From: a virus
DNA length: 64,000 bases
IMG/VR virus record: IMGVR_UViG_3300036801_000174
Span: 1-64,000 of that record
Direction: 5' to 3' (one strand)
The notes beneath the pieces were generated by a model. It searched no databases and was not told where the DNA came from. It worked only from the letters and a program-made list of their open reading frames with translations. The position numbers were made by a program, and so were the translations under genes. The first letter of the stretch is position 1; each line of letters starts with the position of its first letter. Shown here one piece after another: positions 3,442-55,107 of this stretch.

Positions 3442-3681
3442 ATGGCGATCTTTAAACAGGTAGAGGAGAAGCCCGGCGGAGCGCGGAACGTCGTCAAGTG
3501 GGACGTGCGGACCGTCCGCGACTACCGGCCGCTGTACTTCCTTGACCGGACCCGGGCGGGCTATGACCCGGACGGCGGCCAGTTCGTGACGGTGAACATC
3601 GGCGTGGAGTTCGAAGATGATGAGTCGGCCCAGGACTTCGAGGCCAAGGTCCGCGCCTTGCTGCCTGAGATGAAGCCGTGA
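3442..3681 (+). CDS. hypothetical protein, leaderless, counter-oriented
   Basis: 79-aa ORF filling the intergenic gap; TAGGGT-N6-ATG. Confidence 0.65.
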   Translation: MAIFKQVEEKPGGARNVVKWDVRTVRDYRPLYFLDRTRAGYDPDGGQFVTVNIGVEFEDDESAQDFEAKVRALLPEMKP

Positions 3682-3714
3682 GCATCCCGTACCCGGGCAC
3701 CTGAAGTACCCGGC

Positions 3715-15604: not shown

Positions 15605-15640
15605 GGGACCTCCAGCGACGTGACGTGGGAAGATGCGGGG

Positions 15641-16030
15641 ATGATCAGCGAGGAGCAGGTGGCATTCCTGGCCGCGCGGCTTGACGAGGACGAGACGAGT
15701 GCCAAACTGGCTGCCCGCGAGGGTGGCACGTGGACGCAAGACGATCCCGCACGCTTCCCGGGTTCGATCTCAAGCCTTGGCGGCCCGGTCGTTTACGACG
15801 AAGGCGCACCGGATGAGAACCAGGCTCCGCACATCGTTCGGTTTGACCCGAACCGTATGCTCCGCGACGTGGCGGCCGACCGGCAGCTGCTCGCCGCCTG
15901 GCAGCAAGCGGAGGCTGCTACACCTGCTAGCGCCTGGGAGAGCGACTACGCGCAGGCGCTAGAACGGGCCGTCAGGATCCGGGCCGCCGTCTACAGCGAC
16001 CACCCGGACTACGGGAAGTTGTTCGGCTAG
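15641..16030 (+). CDS. DUF6221-like protein, counter-oriented
   Basis: FLAARLDEDE..HIVRFDPNRMLRDVAA..AVYSDHPDY; GAAGAT-N6-ATG. Confidence 0.75.
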   Translation: MISEEQVAFLAARLDEDETSAKLAAREGGTWTQDDPARFPGSISSLGGPVVYDEGAPDENQAPHIVRFDPNRMLRDVAADRQLLAAWQQAEAATPASAWESDYAQALERAVRIRAAVYSDHPDYGKLFG

Positions 16031-24060: not shown

Positions 24061-24609
24061 ATGAGCGATGACCTGGTGACATGGCTGCGGGAGCAGATCA
24101 CGGCCGACCTGGAAGCGGCGAGGATCGTCGGCGCGGGAGGCTTTGAGCCGGAGCGATGGGATACCGACCCGCCGGGACAGGTGAACCCGGCACCCGCCCC
24201 CTACGGAGACCAGATCAACGCCGTGCTTGTGCCAGATCCCGAGGACCGGCGTGATCGCGAAAGCCTGCCCGGCTGGGTGGAGGTCGTCAGCTATAACCGG
24301 ATGCTCGGCAAACCACCTGAGGCCGACTGCCGGGACGATGACCTGCCGGTCGCGCTTGTCGACTATGGGCGGCGCGAGGTGGATCACATCTGCCGTCACG
24401 ACCCGCGCAACGTGGTCGCCCGCTGCGAGGCGGAACTGGCCATCCTGGATGAGTGCGACCTGCTGCTGAAGGTCGGCATCGCCTTCCCGGATGAGGCAGG
24501 CGTCGAGTCAGCGGAGCGGATCATGCGCCTGATCGGCGCGGCCTACCGTCACCGTGACGGCTACCTGGAGGAGTGGGCACCCGCCGCTGCCCTCCAGGGC
24601 AGCGGCTAG
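24061..24609 (+). CDS. DUF6221-like protein, counter-oriented
   Basis: DLVTWLREQI..HICRHDPRNVVARCEA..AAYRHRDGYLEEWAP; CAGACT-N7-ATG. Confidence 0.75.
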   Translation: MSDDLVTWLREQITADLEAARIVGAGGFEPERWDTDPPGQVNPAPAPYGDQINAVLVPDPEDRRDRESLPGWVEVVSYNRMLGKPPEADCRDDDLPVALVDYGRREVDHICRHDPRNVVARCEAELAILDECDLLLKVGIAFPDEAGVESAERIMRLIGAAYRHRDGYLEEWAPAAALQGSG

Positions 24610-27600: not shown

Positions 27601-27731
27601 CCCATCTGCGAGACGCCGGCCGCCGCCTGGTGCATCGCTTCGGGACCGGGCCCGGCCAGTGTCTCCACGTCAGTGCCGAGGGCTTTGGCGGCGCGGGTCA
27701 GCGTCCCTGCGATGCGAGTGCGGACGCCCAT
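24606..27731 (-). CDS. portal protein fused to 2H phosphoesterase and MuF-like minor head domain
   Basis: portal N-terminal half (YGHAPIES, FHVVPSDLGF, EIREMRFGL); HITIVY and HVTLAY 2H motifs; C-terminal CPVC..PPAHPRCNC. Confidence 0.85.
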   Translation of the reverse strand: MGVRTRIAGTLTRAAKALGTDVETLAGPGPEAMHQAAAGVSQMGPDHPFSPGEPVGPYDGYSRTPRVLDYTTSYNVATRPRTHERVSFDALKGLIGAYDVADICIWHRIDSIRSLKWKLIATQGYTGDVTGAIALAQKALKKPDRKQSFKAWFAKYAYDILAYDAGALYRMRNRAGQCIGLKPVDGTLIAPLLDYWGDSPEPPAEAYVQYANGLPWGWLTRDDLIYEPFRPHSDSPYGHAPIESIMLNANTDIRFQIYFLQRFTEGNIPEAFASAPESWNPDQIETFQAYWDSMIYGDQAAKHQIRWLPGGSQFTWSNEKEFTDTFSLFLMRKTCASFHVVPSDLGFTEDVNRSSGESQADVQHRVGDLPLMEHIEGILSAFIIDDLGLPLEFEFDRGEEQDDQLNVAQSDQIYIQNGVVGASEIREMRFGLAEPEGQTVPRVFFTTRGGPIPLSALYGVAGPVDAQTAAPDPDAPLPHEAFTGVQGVLPNPPLVAEPLAEQEYGPKALPPAPPPQPGTVAKEAGEGGTPTTGITADTGITSYDLIGQDDDEDGPEDQAAVVKSELAAFRRFEKARRKAGTWRDFEFRHVDAAEAAQLNAAARVKVRKDTSGYDLGPRSGMISLDLPEGLIDPVPGGVTDHHITIVYLGPDVDEVALMQACERAGTAAAAMPGPLTGTVGGIGTFPPSDSSDGKTPAWAGVVLPGAEQLRESLADLSASEHADWHPHVTLAYTEPGDPLPAAVPETPVTFTHLSVHCGNDVGRFPLGAAEVTKAASPPKVWPGWEHDGPAVAYWAPQVTAAVSRALTPAVLDRMAMSYLAANPAQQGDAPGKRDRNGAAAAWLAEWLAASGITLPLAAVAEGIVTGGYLIGAVSATALVNGHDRVVQAAPPGDTQGAVRQVASLGLDAALSAFLAGAVAAAVTAITGAFTAVLSRVLGGVTGGTSMRDLGDQLAGAVAAPDVAEGAAMDQVTGASAQAAMDTYPENGVEYSLWLTDPAAGIVCPVCLDNEAEGRVPLGQPFSSGDTMPPAHPRCNCSLIPG

Positions 27732-33474: not shown

Positions 33475-34443
33475 CTACGTGACGTGCTCAAGCAACACTG
33501 GCGTCGCGTGCGCTCGGTGATACGCCACCCACCGCTTGGCATTGATGTCGTACTCCTCGGCGGTCATCTCGTCCTGGCAGTTGTCGCAGCGGCTGTAGAG
33601 ATTCCGGTCACCGTCCGGCCACGCCCGCCGCAGGCTCCGCCACGTGCACTGCCTGCACGGCACGATCAGCAGCTCCGGTGGCGGGCTGGTCTCAAGCAGC
33701 AGCGAACGGGACCGGTAGTGCAGCCACTGGATGTCCCGCCCGGCGTCTTCCCCGCCAGCGAGTACCTGCGGCTGGAGGCTGTCGATCGTGACCCGCACCA
33801 GCTCGCGGTCACCGAACTCCTCGACCAGATCGGCCGGGATGGGCTCGGCGGGTTCCCGGGGCGGCAGCACATCCGCTGACGGCAGCCAGTCGGTGCCGAG
33901 GGCGCGCATGTCCTCATCGCGGGGCATCGGCGGCATGAAGACCTGCCTCGTCATCCAGGTGTCCTGCAGGGCGATCAGCGGAGTGATGTGCCGGGCCAGC
34001 ACCCGTGCGTTGTCGCGCACTCCCCTGGCGCTGCCGTGCGGGTGCTTCAGCGGGGACAGTGACAGTCCGGGCACCGACCTGACCCGCGCTGCCCACCCGC
34101 CGAGGGTGAACGCCATGAACGCCATGTGGGCCTCGACGTCTTCGCGCAGGATCACCTGCGGGCCGGCCGGCGAGTGGATCTGCACCTCCGCGACCAGCGG
34201 GTCACCGATCGCCGCGGCGAGGCGCACCCAGTAGCCGGGGAGATCCCTGGCGCAGTCGGCGAGGAACGTGGCGCAGCGGTCGCAGTAGGGCCGCGGGGAG
34301 CGGGCCGGGGTGACGATCCGCTCGCCATCCACGAAGGTGACGGTGCGGGCACTGCACCATTGATCTCTGGCGCACTCCTGGCCTGCGGATTCCGGCTCAT
34401 TATCTGACGCTGAGTGTGCCCGGTAAGGGCCGTCCCTCCGCAT
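33475..34443 (-). CDS. Cys-containing phage protein, candidate late-gene regulator
   Basis: 322 aa with CxxC pairs at both ends; last gene before late promoter. Confidence 0.55.
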   Translation of the reverse strand: MRRDGPYRAHSASDNEPESAGQECARDQWCSARTVTFVDGERIVTPARSPRPYCDRCATFLADCARDLPGYWVRLAAAIGDPLVAEVQIHSPAGPQVILREDVEAHMAFMAFTLGGWAARVRSVPGLSLSPLKHPHGSARGVRDNARVLARHITPLIALQDTWMTRQVFMPPMPRDEDMRALGTDWLPSADVLPPREPAEPIPADLVEEFGDRELVRVTIDSLQPQVLAGGEDAGRDIQWLHYRSRSLLLETSPPPELLIVPCRQCTWRSLRRAWPDGDRNLYSRCDNCQDEMTAEEYDINAKRWVAYHRAHATPVLLEHVT

Positions 34444-34484
34444 CCTTGGAGGGTAGCCGACCTGTCACAGTCGGTGACCGAGCC

Positions 34485-34676
34485 TTACTGCAGGCCCTCA
34501 GCCCGAAGGTCGATCACTTTTGAATCGGCATTCAGTTCAGCGAGGGTTTTTGTGGGGTTCCAGGTCAGGATCGGGCAGTCATCGGTCTGGCACCACGCCT
34601 GGGTGCCGCCGCCCATCAGCCATACTGGCGGCTCACCGCAGGCGGGGCACTTCAGCCCCACCGGCTCGCTGTTCAC
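34485..34676 (-). CDS. small zinc-ribbon protein
   Basis: CPACG..CQTDDC, GGAGG upstream. Confidence 0.55.
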   Translation of the reverse strand: MNSEPVGLKCPACGEPPVWLMGGGTQAWCQTDDCPILTWNPTKTLAELNADSKVIDLRAEGLQ

Positions 34677-34680
34677 CTGC

Positions 34681-35832
34681 TCATCCTCCCTCGGCGACCG
34701 CGTGAAGCGGGCGCGGCGCCCTCTCGGCCTGCACCTCGGCCAGCAGTCGCCCGGCCGTCTTATCGCCGACAGGAAGCTCCTTCATCACCAGGTACTTGGA
34801 GACCTTGCCGCGGTCGGCGAACAGTTCCCGGATGCCTTCCCGGATGTCCTCGTCGGTTGCCTTCCGGCCACCCTTCCGGCGTGCCTTCTGGACGGCACCT
34901 GCGGGTGGCTTCTGCGGGGCAGTTGCGGATGCCTTCCGGGGGGCCGTCTGTGGTGCATCCCCAGCGGGTAGCTCAGGTGCCGCCTGAGTGACCGTCTCGG
35001 GTGCAGTCTGGAGGTCGTTCGAGATGGCCTCCGAGAGGGCCTCCGAGAGCCCCAGGCGGCGTGACAGCCAGCTGTCCAAGACCGGCTCCCAGTGAGCCGC
35101 TCCGCCCCACGTAAGGCCGTCCTCGATGGCCTGGCGCACATCGGCCGGGAAGCGGCCCGTGCGCATGGCCGTGGCCACCGACAGCGGCACCGGCAGGCCA
35201 GGCTTGCGGGCCAGCACCGCGGCCACGGTGTCGCGCAGGTAGACGCGGGCGTCCTCAATGGCGTTCATCAGCGGCCAGGTGGTGACGCCGAGCAGGTTCT
35301 TGCGGCGCCACATGAAAAACGTCGGGCCCGGCGATGCCATCCAGCGCCGGAGCGGGATCGCGTCGACTGGCTCGGGCGGCGGCTTGCGGAGCGCCTTCCA
35401 GATCAGCCGGAGCACCTCGATGCCGAGGACCCAGGCTGTGGGGCAGGCCGCAGCGAGGATGACCCACAGCAGCGAGTCCGCGAGCGTGGCTGCCCCGTTG
35501 CCGAAGATGGTCAGTGCGGCGAATCCCCAGGCCGCGATCCTGGCCAGCCGCGACGGCCAGCCCAGGGCAACCAGGAGGTGATCGGCGATGACGTAGGTCG
35601 GGATGCCCAGGTCGATCATCAGGGGCAGCAGCCACGGCGAGTGCCAGCCATGGGCCGCAGCTGCGGCGGACAGGTTCCAATACGAGAACCAGGCGCCGGC
35701 GGCCATGGAGGCGATGACGAACGCGACTGCCACGCCGAGCCAGAGCTTCTGGGTGTCGCTGAGACGGCTGCGTCGGGCGTGGGCGGGCAGTGCAGGTGTC
35801 GGTGCGTGCATGCCGTCCATGTTGGCGGTCAC
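34681..35832 (-). CDS. DUF2637 / SpdB-like spread membrane protein
   Basis: SYWNL..A..HGW..LPLMIDLGI, four TM helices, IPLRRWMASP..TF.MWRR, C-terminal HTH-like segment. Confidence 0.75.
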   Translation of the reverse strand: MTANMDGMHAPTPALPAHARRSRLSDTQKLWLGVAVAFVIASMAAGAWFSYWNLSAAAAAHGWHSPWLLPLMIDLGIPTYVIADHLLVALGWPSRLARIAAWGFAALTIFGNGAATLADSLLWVILAAACPTAWVLGIEVLRLIWKALRKPPPEPVDAIPLRRWMASPGPTFFMWRRKNLLGVTTWPLMNAIEDARVYLRDTVAAVLARKPGLPVPLSVATAMRTGRFPADVRQAIEDGLTWGGAAHWEPVLDSWLSRRLGLSEALSEAISNDLQTAPETVTQAAPELPAGDAPQTAPRKASATAPQKPPAGAVQKARRKGGRKATDEDIREGIRELFADRGKVSKYLVMKELPVGDKTAGRLLAEVQAERAPRPLHAVAEGG

Positions 35833-35869
35833 GGGTGATCCTTCCTCGGATTTCCGGCTCAATGCGTGG

Positions 35870-36124
35870 TCAGTGGTGCCTGCGGGGCAAATGCGACTCC
35901 CGGCCACCACCTGGCCCGGGGCCAATCGCACGCTGGCGCTCAGCCTTGAGCCGGCGGAACGCCTCGGCGTCGGGACCGCGGTTCTGCCATCCGAACGCGC
36001 CTTCCCAGAACAGGTCAGTCATTACGCGGTCAATCTGGTGCGGGTCGCCGTTCTCGGCGCCCTGGCCGGCCACACCAGCAGGGGGGCGTACCGGCTCAGA
36101 ACCTGGCTTGTGAGTCATGATCAT
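35870..36124 (-). CDS. hypothetical protein
   Basis: AAGGAG RBS, 84 aa. Confidence 0.55.
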   Translation of the reverse strand: MIMTHKPGSEPVRPPAGVAGQGAENGDPHQIDRVMTDLFWEGAFGWQNRGPDAEAFRRLKAERQRAIGPGPGGGRESHLPRRHH

Positions 36125-36130
36125 TTCTCC

Positions 36131-36295
36131 TTAATTTCCGGGGCGCCGGGCCACGGGTACGACACGGTGAGCACGCTCGCCCCGGACGATCATGAGGACG
36201 ACCGCAGCGATCATGAGCACGCAGATGGCTGCGATGAGCCAGGTGGGCAGGGCGCCGATAGCGGCGACGATGGGCCAGGGATGGGTGTTTGTCAT
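36131..36295 (-). CDS. small membrane protein
   Basis: GGGAG RBS; MTNTHPWPIVAAIGALPTWLIAAICVLMIAAVVLMIV.. Confidence 0.55.
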   Translation of the reverse strand: MTNTHPWPIVAAIGALPTWLIAAICVLMIAAVVLMIVRGERAHRVVPVARRPGN

Positions 36296-36307
36296 GGGGT
36301 GCTCCCT

Positions 36308-36532
36308 TCAGAAGCGCTTAGTGATCCTTATCCAGGTATGGAACGGTCCCCTGAGGCTGTAGAACACCCCGAAACCGCGCCTGCGGTGATGCCGGAAGAG
36401 CAGGACGTGGACCACGAAGTAGCCCAGGACGATTGCGGCGAGGATGTGCATTGCTTGCTCCTTGAACTGGGGGCCCCGGCGCGGGCCCCGGCGGCTGGTG
36501 ATTGCCCGCGCCGGGGCGTCTGTGGTGGTCAC
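36308..36532 (-). CDS. small membrane protein
   Basis: hydrophobic helix plus basic tail; internal AAGGAG-ATG start possible. Confidence 0.5.
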   Translation of the reverse strand: MTTTDAPARAITSRRGPRRGPQFKEQAMHILAAIVLGYFVVHVLLFRHHRRRGFGVFYSLRGPFHTWIRITKRF

Positions 36533-37464
36533 CGCGATCTGCCTCCCCGGGGAGGGCGGTTACGGTAGGTGACTTCGGCTGGGAGCGGCACATGCGGCCG
36601 GTCTGGGCGGTTACGCTCTGCGACATCCTGTGTCCCTGATGTCCTAGATTGTCCTAGCTTTCGGTCCGGGGAGACCCGCCCGAAGGGCGCTGTGCCGGCC
36701 CTCCCGGCTTGCTGGCGCTCCGGCTGTGACCCTGCGTCACTTCGGCGCAGGCGCCCGCGCACCTTGGCAGTCACCCGCTGTAGCCGTCCCCGGTGCTGCG
36801 CCCACGCCTCGTCCTTGGACCCGGTGTAGCCGCCATGCTTGACGGCCAGCCCGAACACCCAGTCGGTGCTCTTAAAGCCGAAGTGATCCCTGACCTTGCT
36901 CAGGTTCTCGCCGTCGCGGAGCATCTGCCCGGCGTCGCGGCCGACCTGCTCAACGCACGGGACGCACCGCTTGCCGGGGTTGCGCGTCTTGCCGCGGCAG
37001 CGCTCGTGGTTGATGCAGTCGTGCTGCGGCGGGGGCACCGGGAGCGGCCTGCCGCCGTTGTTGCGCACCTTGTCCTGGTGCTGCTTCGGGCCGTCCCCGG
37101 TGAACAGGTTGCCGCCCCGGGCGCGGGACTCCTCCTCCGTCGTACCGGGACGCCAGGAATTGTGGGTTCCCACATCGTCCCAGTGCCGCGACTGCAGGCC
37201 TTCTGGGATCGGGCCGCCTTTGAATGCGAAGTTCTCCAGCACCACGCGGTGCGCCTGGCGGGTCACCCGCTTGCCGTCCTTGTCCAGGTACTTCACCAGG
37301 ACGTAACCGTCATCAGTGGTGGTGGTGGCGATCGGCTGGGCCTTGAGGTTGCGGCCCGAGGGGGACTTGCGGGCGTCGGCGTAGAAGTTGCCGTCCCAGC
37401 TGACCCGGAACCCGGGCCACGCGTCCCAGATCGGTTTCCACTGCTCGGGTTCGTGGTCGGTCAT
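36529..37464 (-). CDS. divergent NUMOD4/HNH-like protein
   Basis: EQWKPI..FRVSWDG..DGYVLV..AHRVVLENF..SRHWDD..N. Confidence 0.65.
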   Translation of the reverse strand: MTDHEPEQWKPIWDAWPGFRVSWDGNFYADARKSPSGRNLKAQPIATTTTDDGYVLVKYLDKDGKRVTRQAHRVVLENFAFKGGPIPEGLQSRHWDDVGTHNSWRPGTTEEESRARGGNLFTGDGPKQHQDKVRNNGGRPLPVPPPQHDCINHERCRGKTRNPGKRCVPCVEQVGRDAGQMLRDGENLSKVRDHFGFKSTDWVFGLAVKHGGYTGSKDEAWAQHRGRLQRVTAKVRGRLRRSDAGSQPERQQAGRAGTAPFGRVSPDRKLGQSRTSGTQDVAERNRPDRPHVPLPAEVTYRNRPPRGGRSR

Positions 37465-38291
37465 CGTGACCTCCCGGTGTGCGAGTGGTGCCTGCCGCCG
37501 CTCTTCGGCCTGTCGTCGTGTCCCTGCAAGGCCATTACGAACAGGTCACGGATTGTGGCGGCGCGCTCCGTGCGGGCATCAAGGGCCGAGCGGAGGCGCT
37601 CAAGCGACCGGGGGTCGTTGTAATCGGCGAGCTTCCAGAACTGCCACCAGCGCGGGTTCCGCGCCAGCGCCCGGCGCACTTTGGCAGCTTCGGCCTTCGC
37701 CTGCTCGTGGGTAGCGTTCCAGTAGTAGGCGCACATCTGGCCCGTATCAGCCCACGGGGAGTGCTCCTCCGCGGTTGCCCCGAGGAACACCAGGCGCCCG
37801 ATGAGGCCTGCGGCCTTCTCCTCATCGAACGGGCCGCTGGCGACGGCCAGGCCCTTCAGTTCGGCGTCCAGGGCGACCGGATCGCCGACTTCCGCCCGGG
37901 GCATGAGGCTGAAGGGGAGACCCTTCTGCACGGCGCGCCTGGAGGCACCACGCCACAGGCCGAGGAAGAACATGAGGCTGTCGTCAAGGCGGAACAGTTC
38001 AGCGCGGCCGTCTCCGGTGATCTGGCTGTCCGCGAAGCGCTTGTGGAAGGCGTCCTCCACGTCCTCGCCGCCTGGCACCAGCATGAGCACGTCCTCAAAT
38101 GAGAGGTAGAAGCCCCGCAGCCGCGCCTTCAGGCTGGTGGACGTGCCGATCTTGACGTTGTCACCCATGCGCACGAAGTAGACGACCGGCAGGTGATTCT
38201 CGCCTGCGAGGATGCGGGCCAGTTCAACACCACCCGCATAGCTGCGCTTGTCCATTCCCTGCTCCCCCTCAGGTCGGTTACGGCTTGTCAT
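37461..38291 (-). CDS. T5orf172/GIY-YIG-like domain protein
   Basis: VVYFVRMGDNVKIGTS..RL..E..FHKRF..ELF. Confidence 0.7.
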   Translation of the reverse strand: MTSRNRPEGEQGMDKRSYAGGVELARILAGENHLPVVYFVRMGDNVKIGTSTSLKARLRGFYLSFEDVLMLVPGGEDVEDAFHKRFADSQITGDGRAELFRLDDSLMFFLGLWRGASRRAVQKGLPFSLMPRAEVGDPVALDAELKGLAVASGPFDEEKAAGLIGRLVFLGATAEEHSPWADTGQMCAYYWNATHEQAKAEAAKVRRALARNPRWWQFWKLADYNDPRSLERLRSALDARTERAATIRDLFVMALQGHDDRPKSGGRHHSHTGRSR

Positions 38292-40162
38292 CGCGCTGCG
38301 CTCCCTATCAGGCGGCGCTCCTCTTCCCAGTCGGCGATCTCAACCGGGTCGTAGGCGGGTGCGGATCCCTTCTTGCGGACCGGTTCCGGGACGGGCTTCC
38401 CGGCCGCCCGGTCGCGCTGCATCTGCTTCTTGACCGCGTCGGGAGTCGGCCCGGTGATCTCGCGGTCGACCAGCTCGGCGATCGTCAGGGGCTCCGGCGG
38501 AGGGGGCAAAGCGGGCATATGTCCACGACTTGCCGGGACATCCGGGCCAGATTCCCCGGTGTCCGCGACTTGACCGCTGTCCGGGACAAGGCGCAGGGCG
38601 AGCTTGCGGGCCGTGCCGGAGGCTTCCTGGGCAGCGCGCTCAGGAGTGCCTAGCGGTGCGAGGGTGCCTTCGATGCCGAGACACGGCATGTCGCCGGCTG
38701 CGCTGGCGATGACGCCTGCCGTGGCCCAGGCGCGGGCCTCGGCGCCGGTCATGAAGGCAGCCTGGATCTCGGTGCTGGTCTTCGCGGTGACCACATGGAG
38801 GCGCCCCTTGACATCCGACCCGGCCGGCAGCGGGTGACGGTCGCCGACGAGCATCTTCCAGGTGGACGCGGCCGGGTTGGAGATGAGCTTGAGGCCCAGG
38901 TTCTCGCGGCTGTCCGCCGAGCCGCCGCCGGTTGCCTTCGCTGACAGCCGCTGGCCGATGTAGACCAGGTTGACCGCGACGGCGCGGCCGGTGAACGCAA
39001 CCCGGTCCAGCGCGATCACGGCCGGTGACATGCCCTTGCCGCCGATGGACCGCCAGTAGGACTTGAGTTCCGCCGCGGTCGCGTTCAGTTCTTCCAGGAG
39101 GGCGACGATCCTCGGGCCGGGGTTGGCGTGGACCTTGCCCTCAACGTCGGCGTGCAAGACGGCCAGGGCGTTGCGGCGGTCCACTTCGGCGGCCAGCCAG
39201 AGTGCCAGCTGGTGCACATCCTCGATCGTGCGGGCGTAGGCGACGTTGGGCAGGCCCGCCGCCCACTGGTGGCTCACGAGTTTGCGGTCCAGGACAACGG
39301 TGAGGGCGCCGTGATAGGCAAGCTGGGCGGCAGCGAGGCGGGCCGTGACACTTTTGCCATCCCCTGTGGGCATCGACAGGCCCAGGTGCGGGGAGTCGCT
39401 GTCGACGCTGACGATGAACGGGTCACTGGCGCCCTTGCGGGTCAGGCCCAGCACCATCTCGTGCTCGGCCGCTGCCTCCGCAGCGGCCAGGATCTCGGCC
39501 CAGGCGACGAAGCCGGGCATCGGCTCCGCCTTGGTGAACACGGCAACCGGACGGCGCCGCAGCGGCGACTGCGACCAGGCAATGCCGGGCGGCCCGGCGA
39601 TCGCGATCCGCGGCACGGCGGCGAGGACAGCCTGGCTGACCTTCTCCTTGGCCTGGACGTCGAAGTCAGGCCCGAACTCAAGCCACACCTTGCTGTGGTC
39701 GCGTGCGACCTGGGCGTCGCGGGCAGGGATCCCGGCAGTGGCGAGGGACTGTTCCAGCGGCTGAACGTTGTCTTTGACGTGGGTCCAGTTCCGCACGGTC
39801 CAGGTGAAGTGCCATATCCCGGCGAGGATCGCCACGGCGGCGATGACAGCAAAGACGCGGAGGGTGGCAGTGCGGTGCGCTGCGAGACCCCATGCGGTCG
39901 CGAGGATGGCGATGGTGGCCAGATGGCGGGCCAGGGCACGCCGGGATGCGTCGGGGTGCTTCTTGCCGGTGCCCCGGCGGGCCGCGTCCCTGCCTGCGGG
40001 AGTGCGGGGCTGACCGTCAAGCGGGATACCGGCAATCCACCGTCCCGCCGCTGTCAGCTTGCCGTGCTTGCGGCTGTGCTCCGCAATCCGTGACACGACC
40101 GCAAGAACCACCACAACGCAGACGATGATGACCGCGAGCGTGACAATGCTGCTAGTGCTCAT
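38288..40162 (-). CDS. FtsK/SpoIIIE-family (TraB-like) DNA translocase
   Basis: N-terminal TM helices, SPHLGLSMPTGDGKS Walker A, IVALLEE Walker B, GRA..Q motif, C-terminal winged-HTH-like tail. Confidence 0.8.
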   Translation of the reverse strand: MSTSSIVTLAVIIVCVVVVLAVVSRIAEHSRKHGKLTAAGRWIAGIPLDGQPRTPAGRDAARRGTGKKHPDASRRALARHLATIAILATAWGLAAHRTATLRVFAVIAAVAILAGIWHFTWTVRNWTHVKDNVQPLEQSLATAGIPARDAQVARDHSKVWLEFGPDFDVQAKEKVSQAVLAAVPRIAIAGPPGIAWSQSPLRRRPVAVFTKAEPMPGFVAWAEILAAAEAAAEHEMVLGLTRKGASDPFIVSVDSDSPHLGLSMPTGDGKSVTARLAAAQLAYHGALTVVLDRKLVSHQWAAGLPNVAYARTIEDVHQLALWLAAEVDRRNALAVLHADVEGKVHANPGPRIVALLEELNATAAELKSYWRSIGGKGMSPAVIALDRVAFTGRAVAVNLVYIGQRLSAKATGGGSADSRENLGLKLISNPAASTWKMLVGDRHPLPAGSDVKGRLHVVTAKTSTEIQAAFMTGAEARAWATAGVIASAAGDMPCLGIEGTLAPLGTPERAAQEASGTARKLALRLVPDSGQVADTGESGPDVPASRGHMPALPPPPEPLTIAELVDREITGPTPDAVKKQMQRDRAAGKPVPEPVRKKGSAPAYDPVEIADWEEERRLIGSAAR

Positions 40163-40331
40163 CCGTCCCTCCCGCGATGGCCTTGACGTGATGGAAGACC
40201 CATACGGCGCCCTGCTTCACGAGCCAGCCAGCCATGCACGCCGCAGCCAGGGCGGTGAGCATGACCGCGCGGGCCTTGTGGCGGCGCCACAGGCCGTCTG
40301 CCCGGCTCAGGTACTGGCTGGCTCGCTGCAT
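40152..40331 (-). CDS. small membrane protein
   Basis: AAGGAG RBS, 59 aa with one TM helix. Confidence 0.55.
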   Translation of the reverse strand: MQRASQYLSRADGLWRRHKARAVMLTALAAACMAGWLVKQGAVWVFHHVKAIAGGTDEH

Positions 40332-40353
40332 GGGTAACTGGCTCCTTGCCGGT

Positions 40354-41007
40354 TCAGCGGCTACGGGCACGGGTGGGCTGGCGGATGGTCTCGTGAGGCA
40401 GCGGGTGCGCGGTCCTGGCAGGTGCCGGTGCGCTGCGCTCCTCCGGGGCGTGGCCGTTGGTGGCGGCCTTGCCGGGCTCGCTGCGGGTGACGTCCTTCTG
40501 GGCGCCATCGGGGCGCGGGTCGCGGCCACGGGGCATCGGGTGGTCCTCCTGGCCAGGCCGGGTCCGTGCGCTGAGACGCTGGCGCAGCGACGGACGCCCG
40601 GTGCGCTCCTTACGGGGCTTCTGGCCCTTCTCCCGGCGCTCCGCCCGCTGGTCCCGGTCCCGCTGCCTGAGGTCGGCTTTGGCCAGCGGGCGGTCAGTGA
40701 GCGGGGTGTAGCCGCGCCAGGGAGTGGCCGGGCCGGGTGCCTGGCGCTTCGGCGCCTTCGCTGGCTCAGCGCGGACGCCGAGGGTCTTGTGCATCCGCTT
40801 CGGCGTGACCTTGCGCACCGCAGCCTTAGCCACCGCCGCGCTCCGGACCCTGGCACCGCGCTGGCGGTGCAGGATCTTCTGGATCTCGCGGTGGGCCGCT
40901 ACCCGCACTGAGTGGAACGGAGAGCGCAGCGCCTTGATCGCCTTCTGCAGCTTCAGCTTGTCGCGGACGCTGAGGGGGCGGTAACTGGATCCTTTTCCTG
41001 TAGCCAC
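40354..41007 (-). CDS. basic hypothetical protein
   Basis: AAGGAG RBS, R/K-rich 217 aa. Confidence 0.55.
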   Translation of the reverse strand: MATGKGSSYRPLSVRDKLKLQKAIKALRSPFHSVRVAAHREIQKILHRQRGARVRSAAVAKAAVRKVTPKRMHKTLGVRAEPAKAPKRQAPGPATPWRGYTPLTDRPLAKADLRQRDRDQRAERREKGQKPRKERTGRPSLRQRLSARTRPGQEDHPMPRGRDPRPDGAQKDVTRSEPGKAATNGHAPEERSAPAPARTAHPLPHETIRQPTRARSR

Positions 41008-42782
41008 TGCGGGCTCCTTGCTTCAGACGGGATCTTGCTGCCATCGGAGACGGCAGGCGGGACGGGTACGGCGGGCATCGGGATGGCCTGGCGGTGCGGG
41101 GCCTCGATCGCGGGCTGCGGCTGCGGTGCGCAGGCCGGGAAATTCTCGGGGCCGAGAGGGGCGGCGCAGTAACCGCGGCGCTCCCACACGGGCGTGACGC
41201 GGGCGAACACCGGGCGGGTAGACCGGTGCAGCACCAGGGCCTCGAACTTGGCCAGCATGCGGATGCGCTCCGGCGGCACGGCGCGCTCCTGGCGTGGCTG
41301 CCTGGTTTTCCCGCCGCCGGGGTTCTTGACGTGATCCCAGGTGTCGCGTGGCCCGCACACCGCAGAGATGGCCTCAAGATCCTGGTGGTTCGTCTCCCCG
41401 CCGAAAATGACCTTCACTGTGGCGTTGGTGAAAATCGTCTGGCCGTCCTGGTCGCCCCAGCGTGACCGCAACTGCGAGAGTGCCTGGATAGACGCCATAA
41501 CGGTGACGCCATGGCCGCCGGACTCACTCATCCACTTGTGCAGCGGCACCGGGCAGGTGATCGGCGCCTCGTCCAGGGCCAGGGTCAGCGGGCGGGGCAG
41601 GCGCGTGCGGGGGCTGGAGGACGCGACCCTCTTCGCGGTCTCAAACAGGTGCGCGGTGAACGTGGCGAAGTAGGGGGCCAGGGAACCGTGCGGCTTGTCG
41701 GCGCCGATCAGGTAGATCGTGCCGGTGCCATCGCGCACGAAGCGCTCAGCATCGAACTCCGTCCCCGGCGCGGGGCATGCAGCGGCGGCCATGGCCGGGT
41801 CGGACAGCCACGCCAGGGCGGTCATCACGCCCGTGGACGTGTAGCCGCCGTAGTTCTCGTCAGTGTTCATGCGCTCGGCCATCGCGGCGATCTCGTCGCC
41901 CCACCCGGGCGCCGCGTTAGCGTGCGTGGCCAGCACCCTGAGGGGGGTGGGGTCGGCGAGAACGGCAGCGGCCCAGCGGCGCACTTCCCAGATCGTCGCG
42001 CCGGGGATCAGGGCGGCCGCATGAAGCAGATACTGCAGGAAAGTCTTGGACTGGTGATCCCACCATGCGTCCTTGCCGGAGGAGTCCTTCGGCGCGGCGT
42101 TGATCAGGTATCCGGCGCGCTGCATCGCCACCGCCGGGTTCTCGCAGCCGCGTACAGGCGACCACGACAGGGTTGAGGGGATGCCGCCATCGCCGTCAGG
42201 GTTCAGCACCCAGATGGGCCCGTGGGCGCTGCGCGGGACGGCGGTATTGGCGTACAGGTCGGTGCGCGTCGAGGTGGCCAGTACCGCCCCGGGGGCATCA
42301 GAAATCCAGCAGCCCAGCAGCCCGGACTTCCCGGTCCGGGGCGGCGCTATGAGGATGTAGGTGTCTTCGGCGCTGCCAGCGAGCGTTCGGCCTTTCGCGT
42401 CGCCGATGACGACGTGTGATGTGTGGATGCCCGCGGTGCGGCGGCTGGCGGCGCGGGGTGACAAGTTGCCGCTGATCTCGCTGCGCGACGCTGTGCCCTG
42501 GTACTTGCGGCGCCTGCGCTCGGCCACCTTCCCGCCGGCGCGGCGCAAGCGCACAGCGTCGGTCACACCACGGACCCGCAGTACCGTGACCCCGCCAAGC
42601 GCTACCCAGCCGTAGGGGATGCCCGGGGCCATGTGGGCCGCCTCGGCGATGATCCCGGCGGTCAGGATGACGGCCGGTGGTGCGGTGCCCCTGATGGCCG
42701 AGCGCTTGGCCCTGCTGGCGCGGTCACGGACGGACCGCGGCAGGACGCTGCGCTTGGCCTTCGGGGCGGCGTTGGTCTTCAC
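40953..42782 (-). CDS. VirD4/TraG-like type IV coupling protein
   Basis: IAPPRTGKS Walker A, ATSTRTDL, WSPVRGC, LALDEA Walker B, GHGV..IQALSQLRSRWG. Confidence 0.85.
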   Translation of the reverse strand: MKTNAAPKAKRSVLPRSVRDRASRAKRSAIRGTAPPAVILTAGIIAEAAHMAPGIPYGWVALGGVTVLRVRGVTDAVRLRRAGGKVAERRRRKYQGTASRSEISGNLSPRAASRRTAGIHTSHVVIGDAKGRTLAGSAEDTYILIAPPRTGKSGLLGCWISDAPGAVLATSTRTDLYANTAVPRSAHGPIWVLNPDGDGGIPSTLSWSPVRGCENPAVAMQRAGYLINAAPKDSSGKDAWWDHQSKTFLQYLLHAAALIPGATIWEVRRWAAAVLADPTPLRVLATHANAAPGWGDEIAAMAERMNTDENYGGYTSTGVMTALAWLSDPAMAAAACPAPGTEFDAERFVRDGTGTIYLIGADKPHGSLAPYFATFTAHLFETAKRVASSSPRTRLPRPLTLALDEAPITCPVPLHKWMSESGGHGVTVMASIQALSQLRSRWGDQDGQTIFTNATVKVIFGGETNHQDLEAISAVCGPRDTWDHVKNPGGGKTRQPRQERAVPPERIRMLAKFEALVLHRSTRPVFARVTPVWERRGYCAAPLGPENFPACAPQPQPAIEAPHRQAIPMPAVPVPPAVSDGSKIPSEARSPQWLQEKDPVTAPSASATS

Positions 42783-44305: not shown

Positions 44306-44677
44306 CTAGGCCACCTCTTCCGTTCCGCAGCACTTGCCGCGCCGGGCGGCCTCGCACTCGGTGCACTCCAGGCGCCCGTCGCTGCGGACCCTGGTGTTCG
44401 CCGCGGAGCGCCAGTGCCCGTTGTCGCACAGCGGGGAGGGCGGCAGGGAGCCGTGACCGGAGCCCTCGAAGTCCACGCCCGCCCAGATCCCCCATCGCTG
44501 GTCTGTCGCCAGGGCGTACTCCAGGCACGGCGGCCGTGACGGGCACGCCTGGCAGACCTGCTTGGCTGCGTCGATGCCTGCCGGGTCCTCAGGGAACTGC
44601 CGGTCAGGGTCGGCGCCACACGGGAGGCCGGGGGCGTCCCGGACGGCGCGCAGGAAGACGGCAGCCGGGCTGGTCAT
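44306..44677 (-). CDS. whiB: WhiB-family regulator with C-terminal zinc finger
   Basis: C..DPD.FP..AKQVCQACPSRPPCLEYAL..WGIWAG; then CDNGH..NT..G..ECTEC. Confidence 0.85.
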   Translation of the reverse strand: MTSPAAVFLRAVRDAPGLPCGADPDRQFPEDPAGIDAAKQVCQACPSRPPCLEYALATDQRWGIWAGVDFEGSGHGSLPPSPLCDNGHWRSAANTRVRSDGRLECTECEAARRGKCCGTEEVA

Positions 44678-44807: not shown

Positions 44808-46055
44808 TCATGCCGCGCTCCGGGCGGTTCCCGCCGCCGCGAACTGCGCGGGCTTCTGCGGGCATAGAGCCGGGTGCCCCCCGGCGTGCGCAGGGATTTC
44901 GCCGCCAGTGGCGATGAGTCCCCGGGCAAGTACATTGCGCGCGGCATTTACATCGGCGTGGTCTTCGTGGCCGCACTCCTGGCACCGGAAGACCGCTTGG
45001 CTCTCGCGGTTCAGGGCGTTGGTGTGGCCGCAGATGTGGCACTGCTGCGAGGTGAATCTAGGGTTGACGAACAGGACCGTGACATCGGACGCCGCAGCCT
45101 TTTGCTCTAGCCGAGTGGCGAGGGTGCCCCAGCAGGAAGTCAGAATGCCCCGGCTCAGGCTGGCCTTGGCCCGGGCTCCGTTGCGAAGGAATGCGCTTGG
45201 CTGGCCAGGATCAGGCTTCGGCGCGGGCCTTCGGGTCATGCCCGCGATGTTCAGCTTCTCCAGCACGATCAGGTCGTTCTCACGGACCATGCGCGTGCTG
45301 ACCTTCTCCGCCCAGTCCTTGCGCCGGTCGACAGTGCCCGCAGTGATGCGTGCCATGGCCAGCACGGTGCGCTTCCGTTTCGCTGAGCCCTTCTGCTGCC
45401 GGGCCCGCTTGCGAGCGAGGGTGCAATAGCGTGCGGCGTCCCGGTCACCGATCCTCGGGGCCCGGTAGTGCTGGCCGCCCGAGGTCACCAGTGCAGTACG
45501 AACGCTGCGGTCAATACCGATGCGGCTGCCCGAGGGCTCACGGACAACGGCAGGCTGCAACGCAGCGAATGACACGTGCCACCGCCCGGCCCGGTCCAGG
45601 GTGACCCGGTAAGACTTGGCCTCGGGGACCGAACGGGACCAGCGGAAACGTACCCAGCCAAGCTTGGGAATCTGAACTGCGCCCCAGTGCCGCGACTGGC
45701 GCTTGACGCGGTAGCCGCGCCCTAGGTCATGAACCCGGAATCCCTCATTGCGCCCGGCCTTGCGCCAGGTCGGGTGCCCATGCGTGCGACCGAAGAAGTT
45801 CTGCATCGCCTGAGCGAAATCCCTGAGCGCTTGGCCCTGGACTTCAGAACTGCCAGCGCGCAGCCAGTCGAATTCGCTACGGGCCTCGGTAAGTTGCCGC
45901 GACTGCTCTGCGTAGCCGGGTGCGTTCTTGCGCCCGGGCCGCCACCAGGACTGCTGCTCGACCGCCAGGTTCCAGACGAACCGGGCGTGGGCGCAGTGCT
46001 CGCGCAGGATCAACTCCTGGGCAGGCGTCGGGTAGAGCCGGTATCGGGTGCTCAT
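44808..46055 (-). CDS. tnpB: RNA-guided endonuclease TnpB
   Basis: RYRLYPT..HCAHARFVWNLA, GIDRSV, IVLEKL, TSQQCHICG..CQECG..ADVNAARN. Confidence 0.93.
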   Translation of the reverse strand: MSTRYRLYPTPAQELILREHCAHARFVWNLAVEQQSWWRPGRKNAPGYAEQSRQLTEARSEFDWLRAGSSEVQGQALRDFAQAMQNFFGRTHGHPTWRKAGRNEGFRVHDLGRGYRVKRQSRHWGAVQIPKLGWVRFRWSRSVPEAKSYRVTLDRAGRWHVSFAALQPAVVREPSGSRIGIDRSVRTALVTSGGQHYRAPRIGDRDAARYCTLARKRARQQKGSAKRKRTVLAMARITAGTVDRRKDWAEKVSTRMVRENDLIVLEKLNIAGMTRRPAPKPDPGQPSAFLRNGARAKASLSRGILTSCWGTLATRLEQKAAASDVTVLFVNPRFTSQQCHICGHTNALNRESQAVFRCQECGHEDHADVNAARNVLARGLIATGGEIPAHAGGHPALCPQKPAQFAAAGTARSAA

Positions 46056-47291: not shown

Positions 47292-47708
47292 ATGAGCATC
47301 GGGCCGTCGTACCAGCTGGTGGCCGATGACATCTGCGCCCAGATCACCTCAGGCCGCCTGGCAGTAGGCAAGCCGATCCCGTCAACGCGCGAACTCATGG
47401 CCCAGTACAAGGTGTCCAGCACCGTCGCGCGCCATGCCGTGGAAGTCCTCAAGGACGCTGGCGTGCTCGACGGCCACCCCGGGAAAGGCGTCTACGTCAA
47501 GGCCCTCCCCAAGCAGGCCGCAGCGGAGCGGGCCGACGCGCAGGCGCTGGCAAAGGAAGTCGCCGAGTTCCGCGACGAGGTCGATGAGCGCTTCGCCGAG
47601 ATCTACCGGCGGATGGGCTGGGATGAGCACAGCCAGGAAGGACAACACGATGAGCAGCGACACAACGGGCGTCGTCTCCCTGGCGCTGCGGGAGGCCTAC
47701 AAGCCTGA
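47292..47708 (+). CDS. GntR-family repressor (KorA/KorSA-like)
   Basis: YQLVADDI..I.SG.L..G..IPS..EL..YKVS..VARHAV..L..G..PGKGVYV. Confidence 0.85.
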   Translation: MSIGPSYQLVADDICAQITSGRLAVGKPIPSTRELMAQYKVSSTVARHAVEVLKDAGVLDGHPGKGVYVKALPKQAAAERADAQALAKEVAEFRDEVDERFAEIYRRMGWDEHSQEGQHDEQRHNGRRLPGAAGGLQA

Positions 47709-48441
47709 CTTCCGCTCCCTGGCATCCGGGCAGGTCCGCGCGACCAGGGAGAAACTCGGTTTAGACCATGAAGAGTTCGCCGCTCACCTGACAAGCATGC
47801 TGGGCTGGGCGGTGCAGCCTGGCGTCGTCGCCCGCTGGGAACGGGGCGAAGGCACGCCGCCCGGCGACGTGGTCAAGGCCGCAGAGGTGGCAGCACAGTC
47901 AGGACCGGACGACCCTGAGCCCAGTGGCGTCATGCCCTACGCCGACCGGGGCCTGATCTCCCGCCAGCAGTGGAACGGGATGATCGCCGGGTCGCAGGAG
48001 TTCTTGTGGCTGTACGGGATGGCCGAGCTCGGGTACGCCGAAGACGACGAGACCCCGGTCATCATCAGCGCGGCGGCAGAGGCCGGGTGCGAGGTGCGGG
48101 TGCTGCTGCTCGACCCCGCCTACCCGGGGATACCGGACATCGACGCGGCCGAAGGCAACCCGCCCGGGACGCTTGCGGCGAGGATCGGGGCCTCCCTGGC
48201 GCGGTTCTCGCGGATCCGGCAGGCCAGCGGCGGCCAGATGCAGCTGCGGGTCTACGGCACCCACCCGACCGTGAGCGTGGTGCGCGGCGATGACGAGATG
48301 CTGATCACCCACTACATGCGGTCGTTCGCCGGGTCCAACAGCCCGACGATCGGCGCGACGGCTTCGTCGGCGCCGCGGATGTTCGCGCGCTACGCTCGCC
48401 ACTTCGCTGCGGCATGGGACGGCGCGAGGGAGGCGGCGTGA
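47650..48441 (+). CDS. XRE HTH plus DUF5919-like domain protein
   Basis: N-terminal HTH (VARWERGE); VRVLLLDP..LRVY..SVVRGDDEMLITHY..G.NSP. Confidence 0.75.
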   Translation: MSSDTTGVVSLALREAYKPDFRSLASGQVRATREKLGLDHEEFAAHLTSMLGWAVQPGVVARWERGEGTPPGDVVKAAEVAAQSGPDDPEPSGVMPYADRGLISRQQWNGMIAGSQEFLWLYGMAELGYAEDDETPVIISAAAEAGCEVRVLLLDPAYPGIPDIDAAEGNPPGTLAARIGASLARFSRIRQASGGQMQLRVYGTHPTVSVVRGDDEMLITHYMRSFAGSNSPTIGATASSAPRMFARYARHFAAAWDGAREAA

Positions 48442-49028
48442 CGCTCACTAGGGACCACGGTTGCGTTATGAGCATGCAGGACGCCGAGATCGCGGACACC
48501 GAAGTGCTGCTCGACGGGCCCAAGCGGTTCGTCCGCCAGGCCCTGGTGATGCCGGACGGGGAGAAACTCGACTGGTACTACCAGGACACCCCCGCCAGCG
48601 TGATGGTCGTCCCGGTACTGCCCGGCGGCCAGTTCGTGATGGTGTACCAGTACCGATGGAATTTGCGTCACTATGCGCTGGAGTTCCCGGCCGGTGAGGT
48701 CGCGCCAGGGGAGACGCTCGAGGTGGCGCTCAAGCGGGAGCTCGCCGAGGAGACCGGGTTCGCTCTCGGCGAGGGCGGGACGATGAAGCAGCTGGGCTCG
48801 TTCTACAGCCTGCCTTCCGAGACGAACAAGGTGACCCACGTTTTCCTGGCACGGCCCGTGGTATCGGCCGGGCCGGCCCGCAAGGACGACGAGATCGAGA
48901 AGTATTTCAACCTGACGGTGCATATCACAGCGCCAGGTCTGGCCATGGCACAGATCGGGAAGTCGGTTGCGGGGACCGAGACCATCACCGCGCTGATGCT
49001 GGCCAGGGACGCTATGGGGCGGGAGTAG
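48438..49028 (+). CDS. Nudix hydrolase
   Basis: Nudix box GEVAPGETLEVALKRELAEETG; GTGA-coupled. Confidence 0.9.
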   Translation: MTLTRDHGCVMSMQDAEIADTEVLLDGPKRFVRQALVMPDGEKLDWYYQDTPASVMVVPVLPGGQFVMVYQYRWNLRHYALEFPAGEVAPGETLEVALKRELAEETGFALGEGGTMKQLGSFYSLPSETNKVTHVFLARPVVSAGPARKDDEIEKYFNLTVHITAPGLAMAQIGKSVAGTETITALMLARDAMGRE

Positions 49029-54333: not shown

Positions 54334-54477
54334 ATGCGCAAACTCCGGGCCATAGCCGCCCCTGTCCTTGCTGCCGGTTTTCTTGCCGGTGCTCTCGCCA
54401 CCGTCGTGCCAGCCATCACATCGGCTCCGGCTGCGGTCGCGGCCGTCGCCGCGCCTGCGGTACACCTGCACTCATGA
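54334..54477 (+). CDS. 47-aa secreted peptide precursor
   Basis: GGGAGG RBS; MRKLRAIAAPVLAAGFLAGALATVVPAITSAPAAVAAVAAPAVHLHS; signal-peptide shape. Confidence 0.65.
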   Translation: MRKLRAIAAPVLAAGFLAGALATVVPAITSAPAAVAAVAAPAVHLHS

Positions 54478-54939
54478 AGAGCCTCGCCAACGGGGACGGC
54501 CCTGGCGTCGTCCACGCCCTGGGCGCCAGCAGCCCCGGCACGCCCTACGGTCTGACGCTGACCGGCGTGACCCTCAACCAGCTGCCCGAGATCTGGGCAG
54601 GAGCGACTTCGCGCGGCTCGTTGTGAAGCCGCCCCAGGCAGATCCGGTGACCGTCCAGGAGCACCTGGTGCTGCTTGCCTTCCTGCGTGACCACGAGTAC
54701 CAGGATGGTGCCCGGCACCGCCCCTGACCCCCAGACCGGTGGCAAGCGGCGCCCAGGTCATCGCTGCCCGCGACCTGGGCGCCGTCCTGTCCCAGAGGCT
54801 TGACAACGGTCACCAGCACGTCACGCTGAAGGTGCGTGCTCCGTCCGTAGTCCGGCAGGGCAGGTAGGTGAGCCGGGAGCGGTTGACCTCCGATGCACCA
54901 AAACGACCGCTCCCGGGCTGCAGCGCTAGGCTGACCCCC

Positions 54940-55107
54940 ATGACCGCTGACGTGCTGGTTCCCCCCGCCTGCCCGGACCTGCGCGCCGCTCCCCTGGCGC
55001 AGCTGCCAGCCCTGGTCGCGGCCCTGGCTCCCGTGCTCGAGCGGCTGATGCCGGAAGTGCCGGTTGCCACGATCGTGCCGGTGGCGGCCTTCCAGTCGGC
55101 TATCTGA
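54940..55107 (+). CDS. FxSxx-COOH (FxsA-like) RiPP precursor-like peptide
   Basis: 55 aa, leader-like PDLRAAPLAQL..LERL, ends AAFQSAI-stop; TAGGCT-N7-ATG. Confidence 0.75.
   Translation: MTADVLVPPACPDLRAAPLAQLPALVAALAPVLERLMPEVPVATIVPVAAFQSAI

Follow-up and report, generated by a model that had tools for sequence, protein, structure and literature searches.

An FxsA-like gene in a phage genome

The first 64,000 nucleotides of the IMG/VR virus record IMGVR_UViG_3300036801_000174 (the window in the following) contain a short gene for a putative FxsA-family peptide, a precursor of the FxSxx-COOH type among the peptides that are made on ribosomes and modified after translation (RiPPs). An earlier note, made from the sequence without database searches, had described it as an orphan precursor in a phage that mimics or exploits a host Fxs system. 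The open reading frame (ORF) extends from the ATG at 54940 to the TGA at 55105-55107 on the plus strand and encodes a peptide of 55 amino acids (aa), MTADVLVPPACPDLRAAPLAQLPALVAALAPVLERLMPEVPVATIVPVAAFQSAI, with the C-terminus F51-Q-S53-A-I55; the peptide given in the earlier note was recovered exactly. It belongs to the length class of approximately 45-65 aa and ends in F-x-S-x-x at a free C-terminus. An alternative GTG start at 54868 in the same stop-to-stop frame would yield 79 aa, and the ATG at 54940 was preferred because the two closest homologues (see below) start with the same MTA. A simple gene caller that relies on codon usage, with the long ORFs of the record as its training set, chose this frame, and the GC content at the three codon positions (0.84/0.51/0.85) fits a coding sequence without discriminating against the exact antisense frame. 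FxSxx ends occur in three out of 1333 stop-to-stop frames of at least 30 aa in the record, and only the window ORF matches the family.

Membership in the FxsA family was analyzed with the NCBIfam model TIGR04268 (FxSxx-COOH). Residues 12-55 of the window peptide align to the whole profile (1-44) with 18.2 bits (E 0.0022; 15 bits in a six-frame search of the record), which is below the curated cut-off of 28 bits that was treated as an operational threshold and not as a biological feature. A search of an index of 5.8 billion proteins identified two relatives: P0002 (56 aa, 79% identical over the aligned 69% of the query, 23.5 bits on TIGR04268) and P0003 (54 aa, 71% identical), which carries the source name FXSXX-COOH protein and scores above the cut-off with 42.6 bits. 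The Pfam family PF27839 was precomputed for both. A profile of the query and these two relatives matched 52 proteins at E <= 0.001 among 1.84 billion representatives, of which 50 were fetched (all except P0003 and P0054, which has 554 aa and five short matching segments). The fetched proteins are 43-127 aa long and display the motifs DLRxVPL, RxxP, and AF-x-S-xx, the last at the C-terminus or no more than a few residues away from it. After the removal of nine proteins with a long tail or N-terminal extension (P0009, P0011, P0020, P0023, P0029, P0030, P0033, P0050, and P0051), the remaining 41 were aligned with the query, P0002, and P0003. All invariant and nearly invariant positions of this 44-sequence alignment are kept in the window peptide (D13, L14, R15, P18, L19, R35, and P38 in the leader), in which the V of the VPL block is an A.

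A profile of the 41 members, from which the query and both relatives were left out, scored the window ORF with 55.6 bits (E 9e-16) and, at E <= 100, matched only FxsA-like ORFs among the 3577 six-frame ORFs of a high-GC set of phage and prophage sequences (209 kb). A chance ORF was rejected on this basis. Judged by these profiles the window ORF is a true FxsA homologue, and its miss on the TIGR04268 cut-off reflects a divergent subgroup; the test against the TIGRFAM model that the earlier note had proposed produced the full-length alignment and not the score, and its claim of a genuine precursor holds through P0003 and the 41-member profile. The N-terminus MTADVLVPPAC is shared only with P0002 and P0003, both metagenome peptides. 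The peptide had no match at E up to 10 to the SjiA-type model NF040585, with which it has the C-terminal FxSxx in common; its leader places it in the DLR-type group. No close relatives were confirmed in viral, genome, or metagenome contigs with the three-sequence alignment.

The complete IMG/VR record consists of 73,382 bases, is linear without end repeats, has a GC content of 68.6%, and is approximately 72% complete according to CheckV. It contains genes for a portal protein, the large terminase, an XkdF-type protease, the tape measure protein, HNH nucleases, a DnaB helicase, and a RecB-like exonuclease; judged by this content the record is a real phage, in agreement with the earlier note. 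Six-frame searches of the 73,382 bases identified no match to FxsB (TIGR04269), radical SAM (PF04055), or the HExxH hydroxylase (TIGR04267), and no TPR, TIR, or KGGVGR ATPase domain was among the Pfam matches of the 106 called proteins. The earlier note's observation that radical SAM, HExxH, and TPR genes are missing from the window can therefore be extended to the sequenced 73 kb. It had also named a cognate fxsB cluster elsewhere on the element as the alternative to an orphan gene; none is present on the sequenced DNA, estimated to be 72% of the phage. No FxsB remnant was found downstream of the window ORF, the Pfam scan of the 73 kb identified no integrase, and the window contains no tRNA genes. 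Among GenBank phages, a megablast search with positions 50-60 kb of the window and tblastn searches with three FxsA queries returned no match or noise at E >= 6.

The gene appears to be a transcription unit of its own (table 1). The ORF stands between two spacers within a run of small plus-strand genes, no Shine-Dalgarno-like 4-mer precedes its ATG, and a scan for two-hexamer sigma-70 promoters found nothing in its region. A TANNNT hexamer that ends 6-8 nt before the start was identified in nine out of 106 called genes as compared with 0.30% of all positions in the record, and the TAGGCT in front of the window ORF is for this reason considered more than chance. The nine genes start at 3442, 31687, 49038, 49339, 51580, 54940, 57032, and 57324 (+) and at 57878 (-), their hexamers have the form TA(G/C)NNT, and eight of the nine lack a Shine-Dalgarno-like word, a pattern suggestive of a group of leaderless mRNAs in this phage. 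The leaderless gene with its own -10 box that had been proposed from the letters is backed by this enrichment, as far as a promoter can be read from sequence. In the downstream spacer no terminator-like site was found on the plus strand, the predicted fold is unremarkable (z-score of -1.9 relative to shuffled sequences), and Rfam had no match in positions 50-60 kb of the window, which include this spacer.

Table 1. Features of the FxsA-like gene and of a nearby Acb2/Tad1-like gene (positions in the window)
Feature	Position	Strand	Basis and remarks
fxsA-like gene	54940..55107	+	Putative 55-aa FxSxx-COOH-type RiPP precursor, stop codon included; TIGR04268 and own-profile matches
Leader motif P12-D-L-R-A-A-P18-L19 (family DLRxVPL block)	54973..54996	+	D13, L14, R15, P18, and L19 nearly invariant in the 44-sequence alignment
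Second leader motif R35-L-M-P38 (family R(V/I/L)xP block)	55042..55053	+	P38 invariant, R35 nearly so, in the 44-sequence alignment
Core V46-P-V-A-A-F51-Q-S53-A-I55-COOH	55075..55104	+	F51 invariant; V46, A50, and S53 nearly invariant
-10-like hexamer TAGGCT	54927..54932	+	Ends 7 nt before the ATG; putative leaderless-type promoter
Upstream spacer, 212 nt, without called gene	54728..54939		Gene calls; isolates the ORF as its own unit
Downstream spacer, 350 nt, without called gene	55108..55457		Gene calls
Acb2/Tad1-hairpin-like gene, 59 aa	57032..57211	+	PF24729, 29.2 bits (cut-off 27); leaderless-type TAGCCT putative promoter

FxsB in bacterial loci, phages, and likely hosts

Bacterial fxs loci were collected for comparison with a DNA pattern for VPVAAF[NQHK]S[AS]I followed by a stop codon in species-representative genomes. 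The pattern identified at least 120 stretches, 80 of which were analyzed (Kitasatospora, Micromonospora, Streptomyces, Streptosporangiaceae, and metagenome-assembled genomes, MAGs). An FxsB homologue was detected by tblastn in 77 out of these 80 loci; it starts 14-495 nt after the fxsA stop codon in 73 of the 77 and lies approximately 3 kb to the other side in four. In all six loci with NCBIfam annotation fxsA is followed by FxsB, and the TIR-like FxsC comes next in four of them. A KGGVGR ParA-like ATPase is present in loci L045 and L094 and an FxSxx_TPR protein in L094, where the locus reaches that far. An alpha-ketoglutarate-dependent HExxH beta-hydroxylase domain is fused to FxsB in four loci in which the gene is whole or nearly whole; in L094 the extension was called as a separate ORF, and locus L030 stops inside the FxsB gene. 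The earlier note had treated HExxH as a gene of its own, which was incorrect: the NCBIfam name denotes a peptide beta-hydroxylase domain fused to a complete FxsB and not a separate peptidase.

The three loci without FxsB are L093, of which only 110 nt are left, L070, which is on the same contig as L096, and L034 from Streptosporangium carneum, in which no FxsB was found within 3.2 kb downstream of fxsA. In this last locus (3607-4750) the orphan fxsA lies approximately 400-600 nt from a Phage_integrase-family gene and beside housekeeping genes, and this neighborhood places it at the edge of an integrated element.

FxsB has been counted among the cyclophane-forming enzymes (PMC10114670), and the NCBIfam names likewise point to FxsB-type cross-linking, for which F51 and S53 of the window peptide would be the residues reported to be cross-linked. 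According to PMC7159879, conflict systems that contain TIR and AP-ATPase/TPR proteins are coupled to the FxSxx peptide system. A recent preprint identifies FxsC as an active TIR protein and FxsT as a ParA protein with an inactive TIR, calls the system functionally uncharacterized, and suggests for the peptide a role as an antiviral molecule or as an alarm that diffuses (bioRxiv 10.64898/2026.10.19.760177). Relative to the actinobacterial organization (fxsA-fxsB(H)-fxsC-fxsT), the window peptide shares the length class, the DLRxVPL and RxxP leader motifs, and the VPVAAF-x-S-xx-COOH core, and the gene differs by its location in a phage, by the lack of FxsB, FxsC, and FxsT on the record, and by its putative leaderless-type promoter.

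FxsA-like genes were also identified in other phages. A viral census with three DNA patterns for the conserved core returned 27 loci, of which 20 were discarded as noise of the patterns for want of an FxsA-like ORF, and a hidden Markov model of the family retained seven records. Three of these have terminal repeats and a CheckV completeness of 100%: G001 (119.8 kb, three FxsA-like genes in tandem), G003 (113.1 kb, one gene, 28 bits on TIGR04268), and G011 (54.4 kb, one gene). The other four contain one gene each and are less complete: G002 (63.6 kb, 63%), G004 (108 kb, 88%), G010 (38.9 kb, 32%), and G012 (49.6 kb, 59%). A portal gene is present in five out of seven, including all three complete genomes. 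None of the eight FxsA-bearing IMG/VR records (the seven and the window record) contains FxsB, and neither a radical SAM domain nor HExxH was found in G001-G004, the four records searched for them. The maturase-free phage copies that the earlier note had proposed to look for are thus present in seven further records.

The three genes of G001 (L003 1030-1778; G001:C1:34575-35065) have conserved cores (VPVAAFQSSI, VPVAAFNSSL, and VPVAAFNASL) and diverged leaders. The TANNNT-ATG layout of the window gene precedes the fxsA-like genes of G002, G004, and G011, Shine-Dalgarno-like words are present instead in G001, G003, and G010, and G012 has no listed candidate start. The terminase of the window phage had no match in G001-G004 and the capsid protein had one weak match; by these markers the other FxsA-bearing phages are not close kin of the window phage. 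For six out of ten phage peptides the best score was obtained with one of the 80 peptides from bacterial loci and not with another phage peptide, which argues weakly, given the short lengths, that the phage peptides do not form one clade.

These comparisons bear on whether the window gene is an orphan at all. A cognate FxsB could be encoded on the unsequenced part of the phage, as a linear record without end repeats and of limited completeness would allow. This is extremely unlikely: three complete FxsA-bearing phage genomes have no FxsB, and bacterial FxsB genes follow directly after fxsA, whereas here 350 nt of non-coding DNA are followed by unrelated small genes.

Homologues of the capsid protein with 72-84% identity were found in ten bacterial contigs that belong to Streptacidiphilus sp. 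N8-3, six Streptomyces, and three MAGs (labeled Streptosporangiaceae, Amycolatopsis, and Terracidiphilus). The earlier note had suggested to check hosts for fxs genes, and the machinery is indeed widespread among the likely ones: FxsB scores above the cut-off in 102 out of 121 sampled genomes of the Streptacidiphilus family, and the chromosome of Streptacidiphilus sp. N8-3 carries two complete fxs loci within 19 kb (L178, G005:C1:321000-340000), 11 kb apart. The first is organized as fxsA-fxsBH-(acetyltransferase)-fxsC, with an AAC(3)-like acetyltransferase, and the second as fxsA-fxsBH-fxsC-fxsC-ParA/TPR-TPR. Both host FxsA peptides are weak on NF040585 (32.5 and 27.2 bits, cut-off 75).

The Streptacidiphilus contig with the capsid homologue is phage-like over its first ~50 kb (GC content 0.68-0.72 as compared with 0.73 or more beyond 60 kb), and this prophage shares the portal, protease, capsid (84% identical), and DnaB genes with the window phage. 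An FxsA-like ORF is located at 1042-1245 (-), after small same-strand genes with PHROG matches downstream of DnaB, and scores 23.1 bits on TIGR04268 and 32.1 bits on the 41-member profile; no FxsB is present on the contig. The prophage ORF is identical to a chromosomal FxsA of its host at 30 out of 59 positions, including the same last 11 residues (RVEVAAFSSSI), and BLAST returned no alignment with the window peptide. For the other four related prophages, 60 kb upstream of the capsid gene were searched, and none of the 3575 frames matched as FxsA-like. Judged by these genomes, the gene is an exchangeable accessory that copies the host's version in the one case with a known host.

If host matching applies in general, the host of the window phage should have a DLR-type FxsA. 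The nearest DLR-type peptides are from Streptosporangiaceae and unclassified actinomycete MAGs (45-53% identity). The five genomes with related prophages contain neither a DNA match to positions 50-60 kb of the window nor a close homologue of the window peptide, and only the head module is common to the window phage and these prophages.

The same distribution raises the question of a neutral passenger, a recently acquired host gene without a function for the phage. The absence of the gene from four out of five related prophages, its slightly raised GC content (0.735, surroundings 0.61-0.70, upstream spacer 0.68-0.70), and the mixed relationships of the phage peptides would suit such a gene. 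Eight viral records, however, hold the precursor and never fxsB, although fxsB lies 14-495 nt downstream in 73 of the 80 bacterial loci. The retention of all family-invariant positions, the phage-type putative promoter, and the triplication in G001 further make a passenger improbable.

Role of the phage peptide

The window record represents a soil actinomycete phage that probably feeds a look-alike peptide into the Fxs system of its host, in which fxsA stands first in a predicted suicide-type immune cluster. In the proposed mechanism, the fxsA-like peptide would be made early from a leaderless mRNA of a stand-alone transcription unit and would be recognized by the radical-SAM/beta-hydroxylase FxsB(H) of the host. 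As a substrate or a competitor it would then enter the circuit tied to a cell-death module of TIR (FxsC) and ParA/STAND-TPR (FxsT) proteins; maturation by, or competition at, the host FxsB(H) only would bring it to this module. By continued supply or by swamping of the peptide that the module reads, the phage would prevent firing during infection. That the peptide is expressed, that the host enzyme processes it, and which way the effect goes are inferred. Host-dependent maturation that influences the TIR-ParA Fxs module, with counter-defence as the likeliest outcome, can be held with roughly even confidence. Counter-defence is favored because only the precursor was captured, the gene is triplicated in G001, the early-type leaderless promoter is shared with the Acb2/Tad1-like gene, and one allele matches its host. 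The capture appears to have been precise since no fxsB remnant follows the gene, and the tandem triplication is a hint of dosage.

A more specific version is tentative: phage fxsA genes could be host-matched mimics that switch off an abortive-infection module of TIR-ParA-STAND type (FxsC/FxsT), with steady FxsB-matured FxsA read as a signal that all is well and its supply kept up from a leaderless early transcript after host shut-down. Antitoxin mimics of phages, for example pseudo-ToxI and T4 Dmd, stand in for an unstable component of the host, the loss of which sets off abortive infection. The same logic would be fitted by the host-matched Streptacidiphilus prophage allele, with the difference that the known mimics are RNA (pseudo-ToxI) and protein (Dmd) antitoxins and the phage FxsA mimic would be a RiPP precursor.

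A second comparison is offered by Acb2 and Tad1, small enzyme-free phage sponges that neutralize an immune pathway by binding its small-molecule currency. The window gene is likewise small and enzyme-free, has the same promoter type, and is located 2 kb from one such gene, which together with two of its neighbors belongs to the TANNNT set. There is no sequence relation, and a phage FxsA would mimic a host peptide and need a host enzyme. The Acb2/Tad1-like gene that the earlier note had seen at this distance is real according to its PF24729 score, but its proximity is not conserved, as none of the seven other FxsA-bearing phage records matched; this is a weak negative because the control of the search matched nowhere.

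Several observations weigh against a role in counter-defence. FxsB is above the cut-off in only two of the five genomes with related prophages and missing from three, and the gene must be called accessory because a single one of the five prophages has it. The closest bacterial FxsA (only 52% identical) is from a Streptosporangiaceae MAG, whereas the closest capsid relatives are in Streptomycetaceae. The viral census overstates the conservation of the core and is blind to decoys with an altered core since its DNA patterns require a conserved core. For the window phage, at ~72% completeness, a maturase on the missing part is possible. Finally, if the peptide is the alarm or antiviral molecule proposed in the preprint, a copy in the phage, its core being the same, would seem to serve the host rather than the phage.

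This last point leads to the opposite direction of effect, a moron gene of lysogenic conversion: an extra or variant FxsA from a prophage, matured by the host FxsB, would benefit the lysogen in that it arms or retunes the Fxs system of the host to act on other phages, or in that it serves as a kin signal. The position of the gene as a unit flanked by two spacers and with a putative promoter of its own is typical moron anatomy, the relatives of the window phage are prophages, and the orphan fxsA of S. carneum lies approximately 400-600 nt from an integrase-family gene. An antiviral or alarm peptide as modeled in the preprint is also something to which a prophage could profitably add, which again speaks for the lysogen and against counter-defence. 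Conversely, the sequenced 73 kb contain no integrase, the gene lies in a one-strand block of small early-type genes near the Acb2/Tad1-like gene, and a core that is the same as the host's yields no new product; on balance a moron seems unlikely.

A precursor this small with a conserved C-terminal peptide could also serve communication between phages or between phage and host, in which host enzymes process the precursor and a phage receptor reads it. In known communication systems such C-terminal peptides are read by TPR receptors, and arbitrium AimP is a short phage precursor of which the C-terminal part is active. The window peptide resembles AimP as a short phage-encoded precursor and differs from it in that no receptor gene (TPR or AimR-like) is among the 106 called proteins and no sequence relation exists. 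An export signal is not evident by eye, and the bacterial family members are tied to intracellular TIR/ParA modules. Communication of the arbitrium kind is accordingly very unlikely.

Should the more specific version with host-matched mimics be true, no earlier counter-defence would have been based on a RiPP precursor dependent on the host's own maturase, and the role of the Fxs peptide would be revealed. The counter-defence reading in general, if true, would establish a new class of anti-immune device for which orphan RiPP precursors in phages offer a simple screen. The repeated capture of the precursor only, once in a host-matched form, is a natural experiment that points to the peptide itself as the control point of a system whose enzyme is common in the likely host family, though the peptide and its TIR/ParA partners are called functionally uncharacterized in the preprint. 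Streptacidiphilus sp. N8-3, in which two complete fxs loci coexist with an orphan fxsA-like gene of a prophage, represents a cultured test-bed. Full-text literature searches yielded no title or abstract on a phage-borne FxsA; the supplementary neighborhood tables of PMC7159879 and of the 2026 preprint may list copies.

Other genes of the record

Just upstream of the spacer that precedes the fxsA-like gene, three micro-ORFs of 47, 50, and 34 aa (54334-54727, +) follow each other in three frames with ATGA-type 4-nt overlaps. The first resembles a signal or transmembrane peptide, and no family matches were found for the two of the three that were scanned.

The record further encodes WhiB, a TnpB-type protein, a TraG/VirD4-like ATPase, and a NUDIX hydrolase in addition to the 59-aa Acb2/Tad1-hairpin protein. 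Residues 642-746 of the portal protein (24609-27731, -; 1041 aa) match the 2H-phosphoesterase domain 2_5_RNA_ligase2 (32.2 bits, cut-off 27). The 2H-phosphoesterase fold is also that of Acb1, which acts against the cyclic-oligonucleotide-based antiphage signaling system (CBASS), and the domain is a possible second counter-defence device, in this case virion-borne. A regulator of the helix-turn-helix/DUF5919 type is followed by the NUDIX hydrolase (52.2 bits) at 47623-49025 (+); NUDIX enzymes could conceivably act on NAD-derived products of TIR systems.

A conjugation-like block on the minus strand (33478-42782) comprises the TraG/VirD4-type coupling ATPase (40956-42782), a weak FtsK/SpoIIIE-like match (38291-40162), and a DUF2637 gene (34684-35832). 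The TnpB-type gene (44811-46055, -), with OrfB_IS605 and Cas12f-like TNB domains, adjoins the WhiB gene (44309-44677). Two DUF6221 genes (15620-16027 and 24061-24606, +) are located on the opposite strand inside the structural module, and a DUF6221 gene is also present in G002 (L017:5822-6229), approximately 0.6 kb upstream of the fxsA-like gene of that phage.

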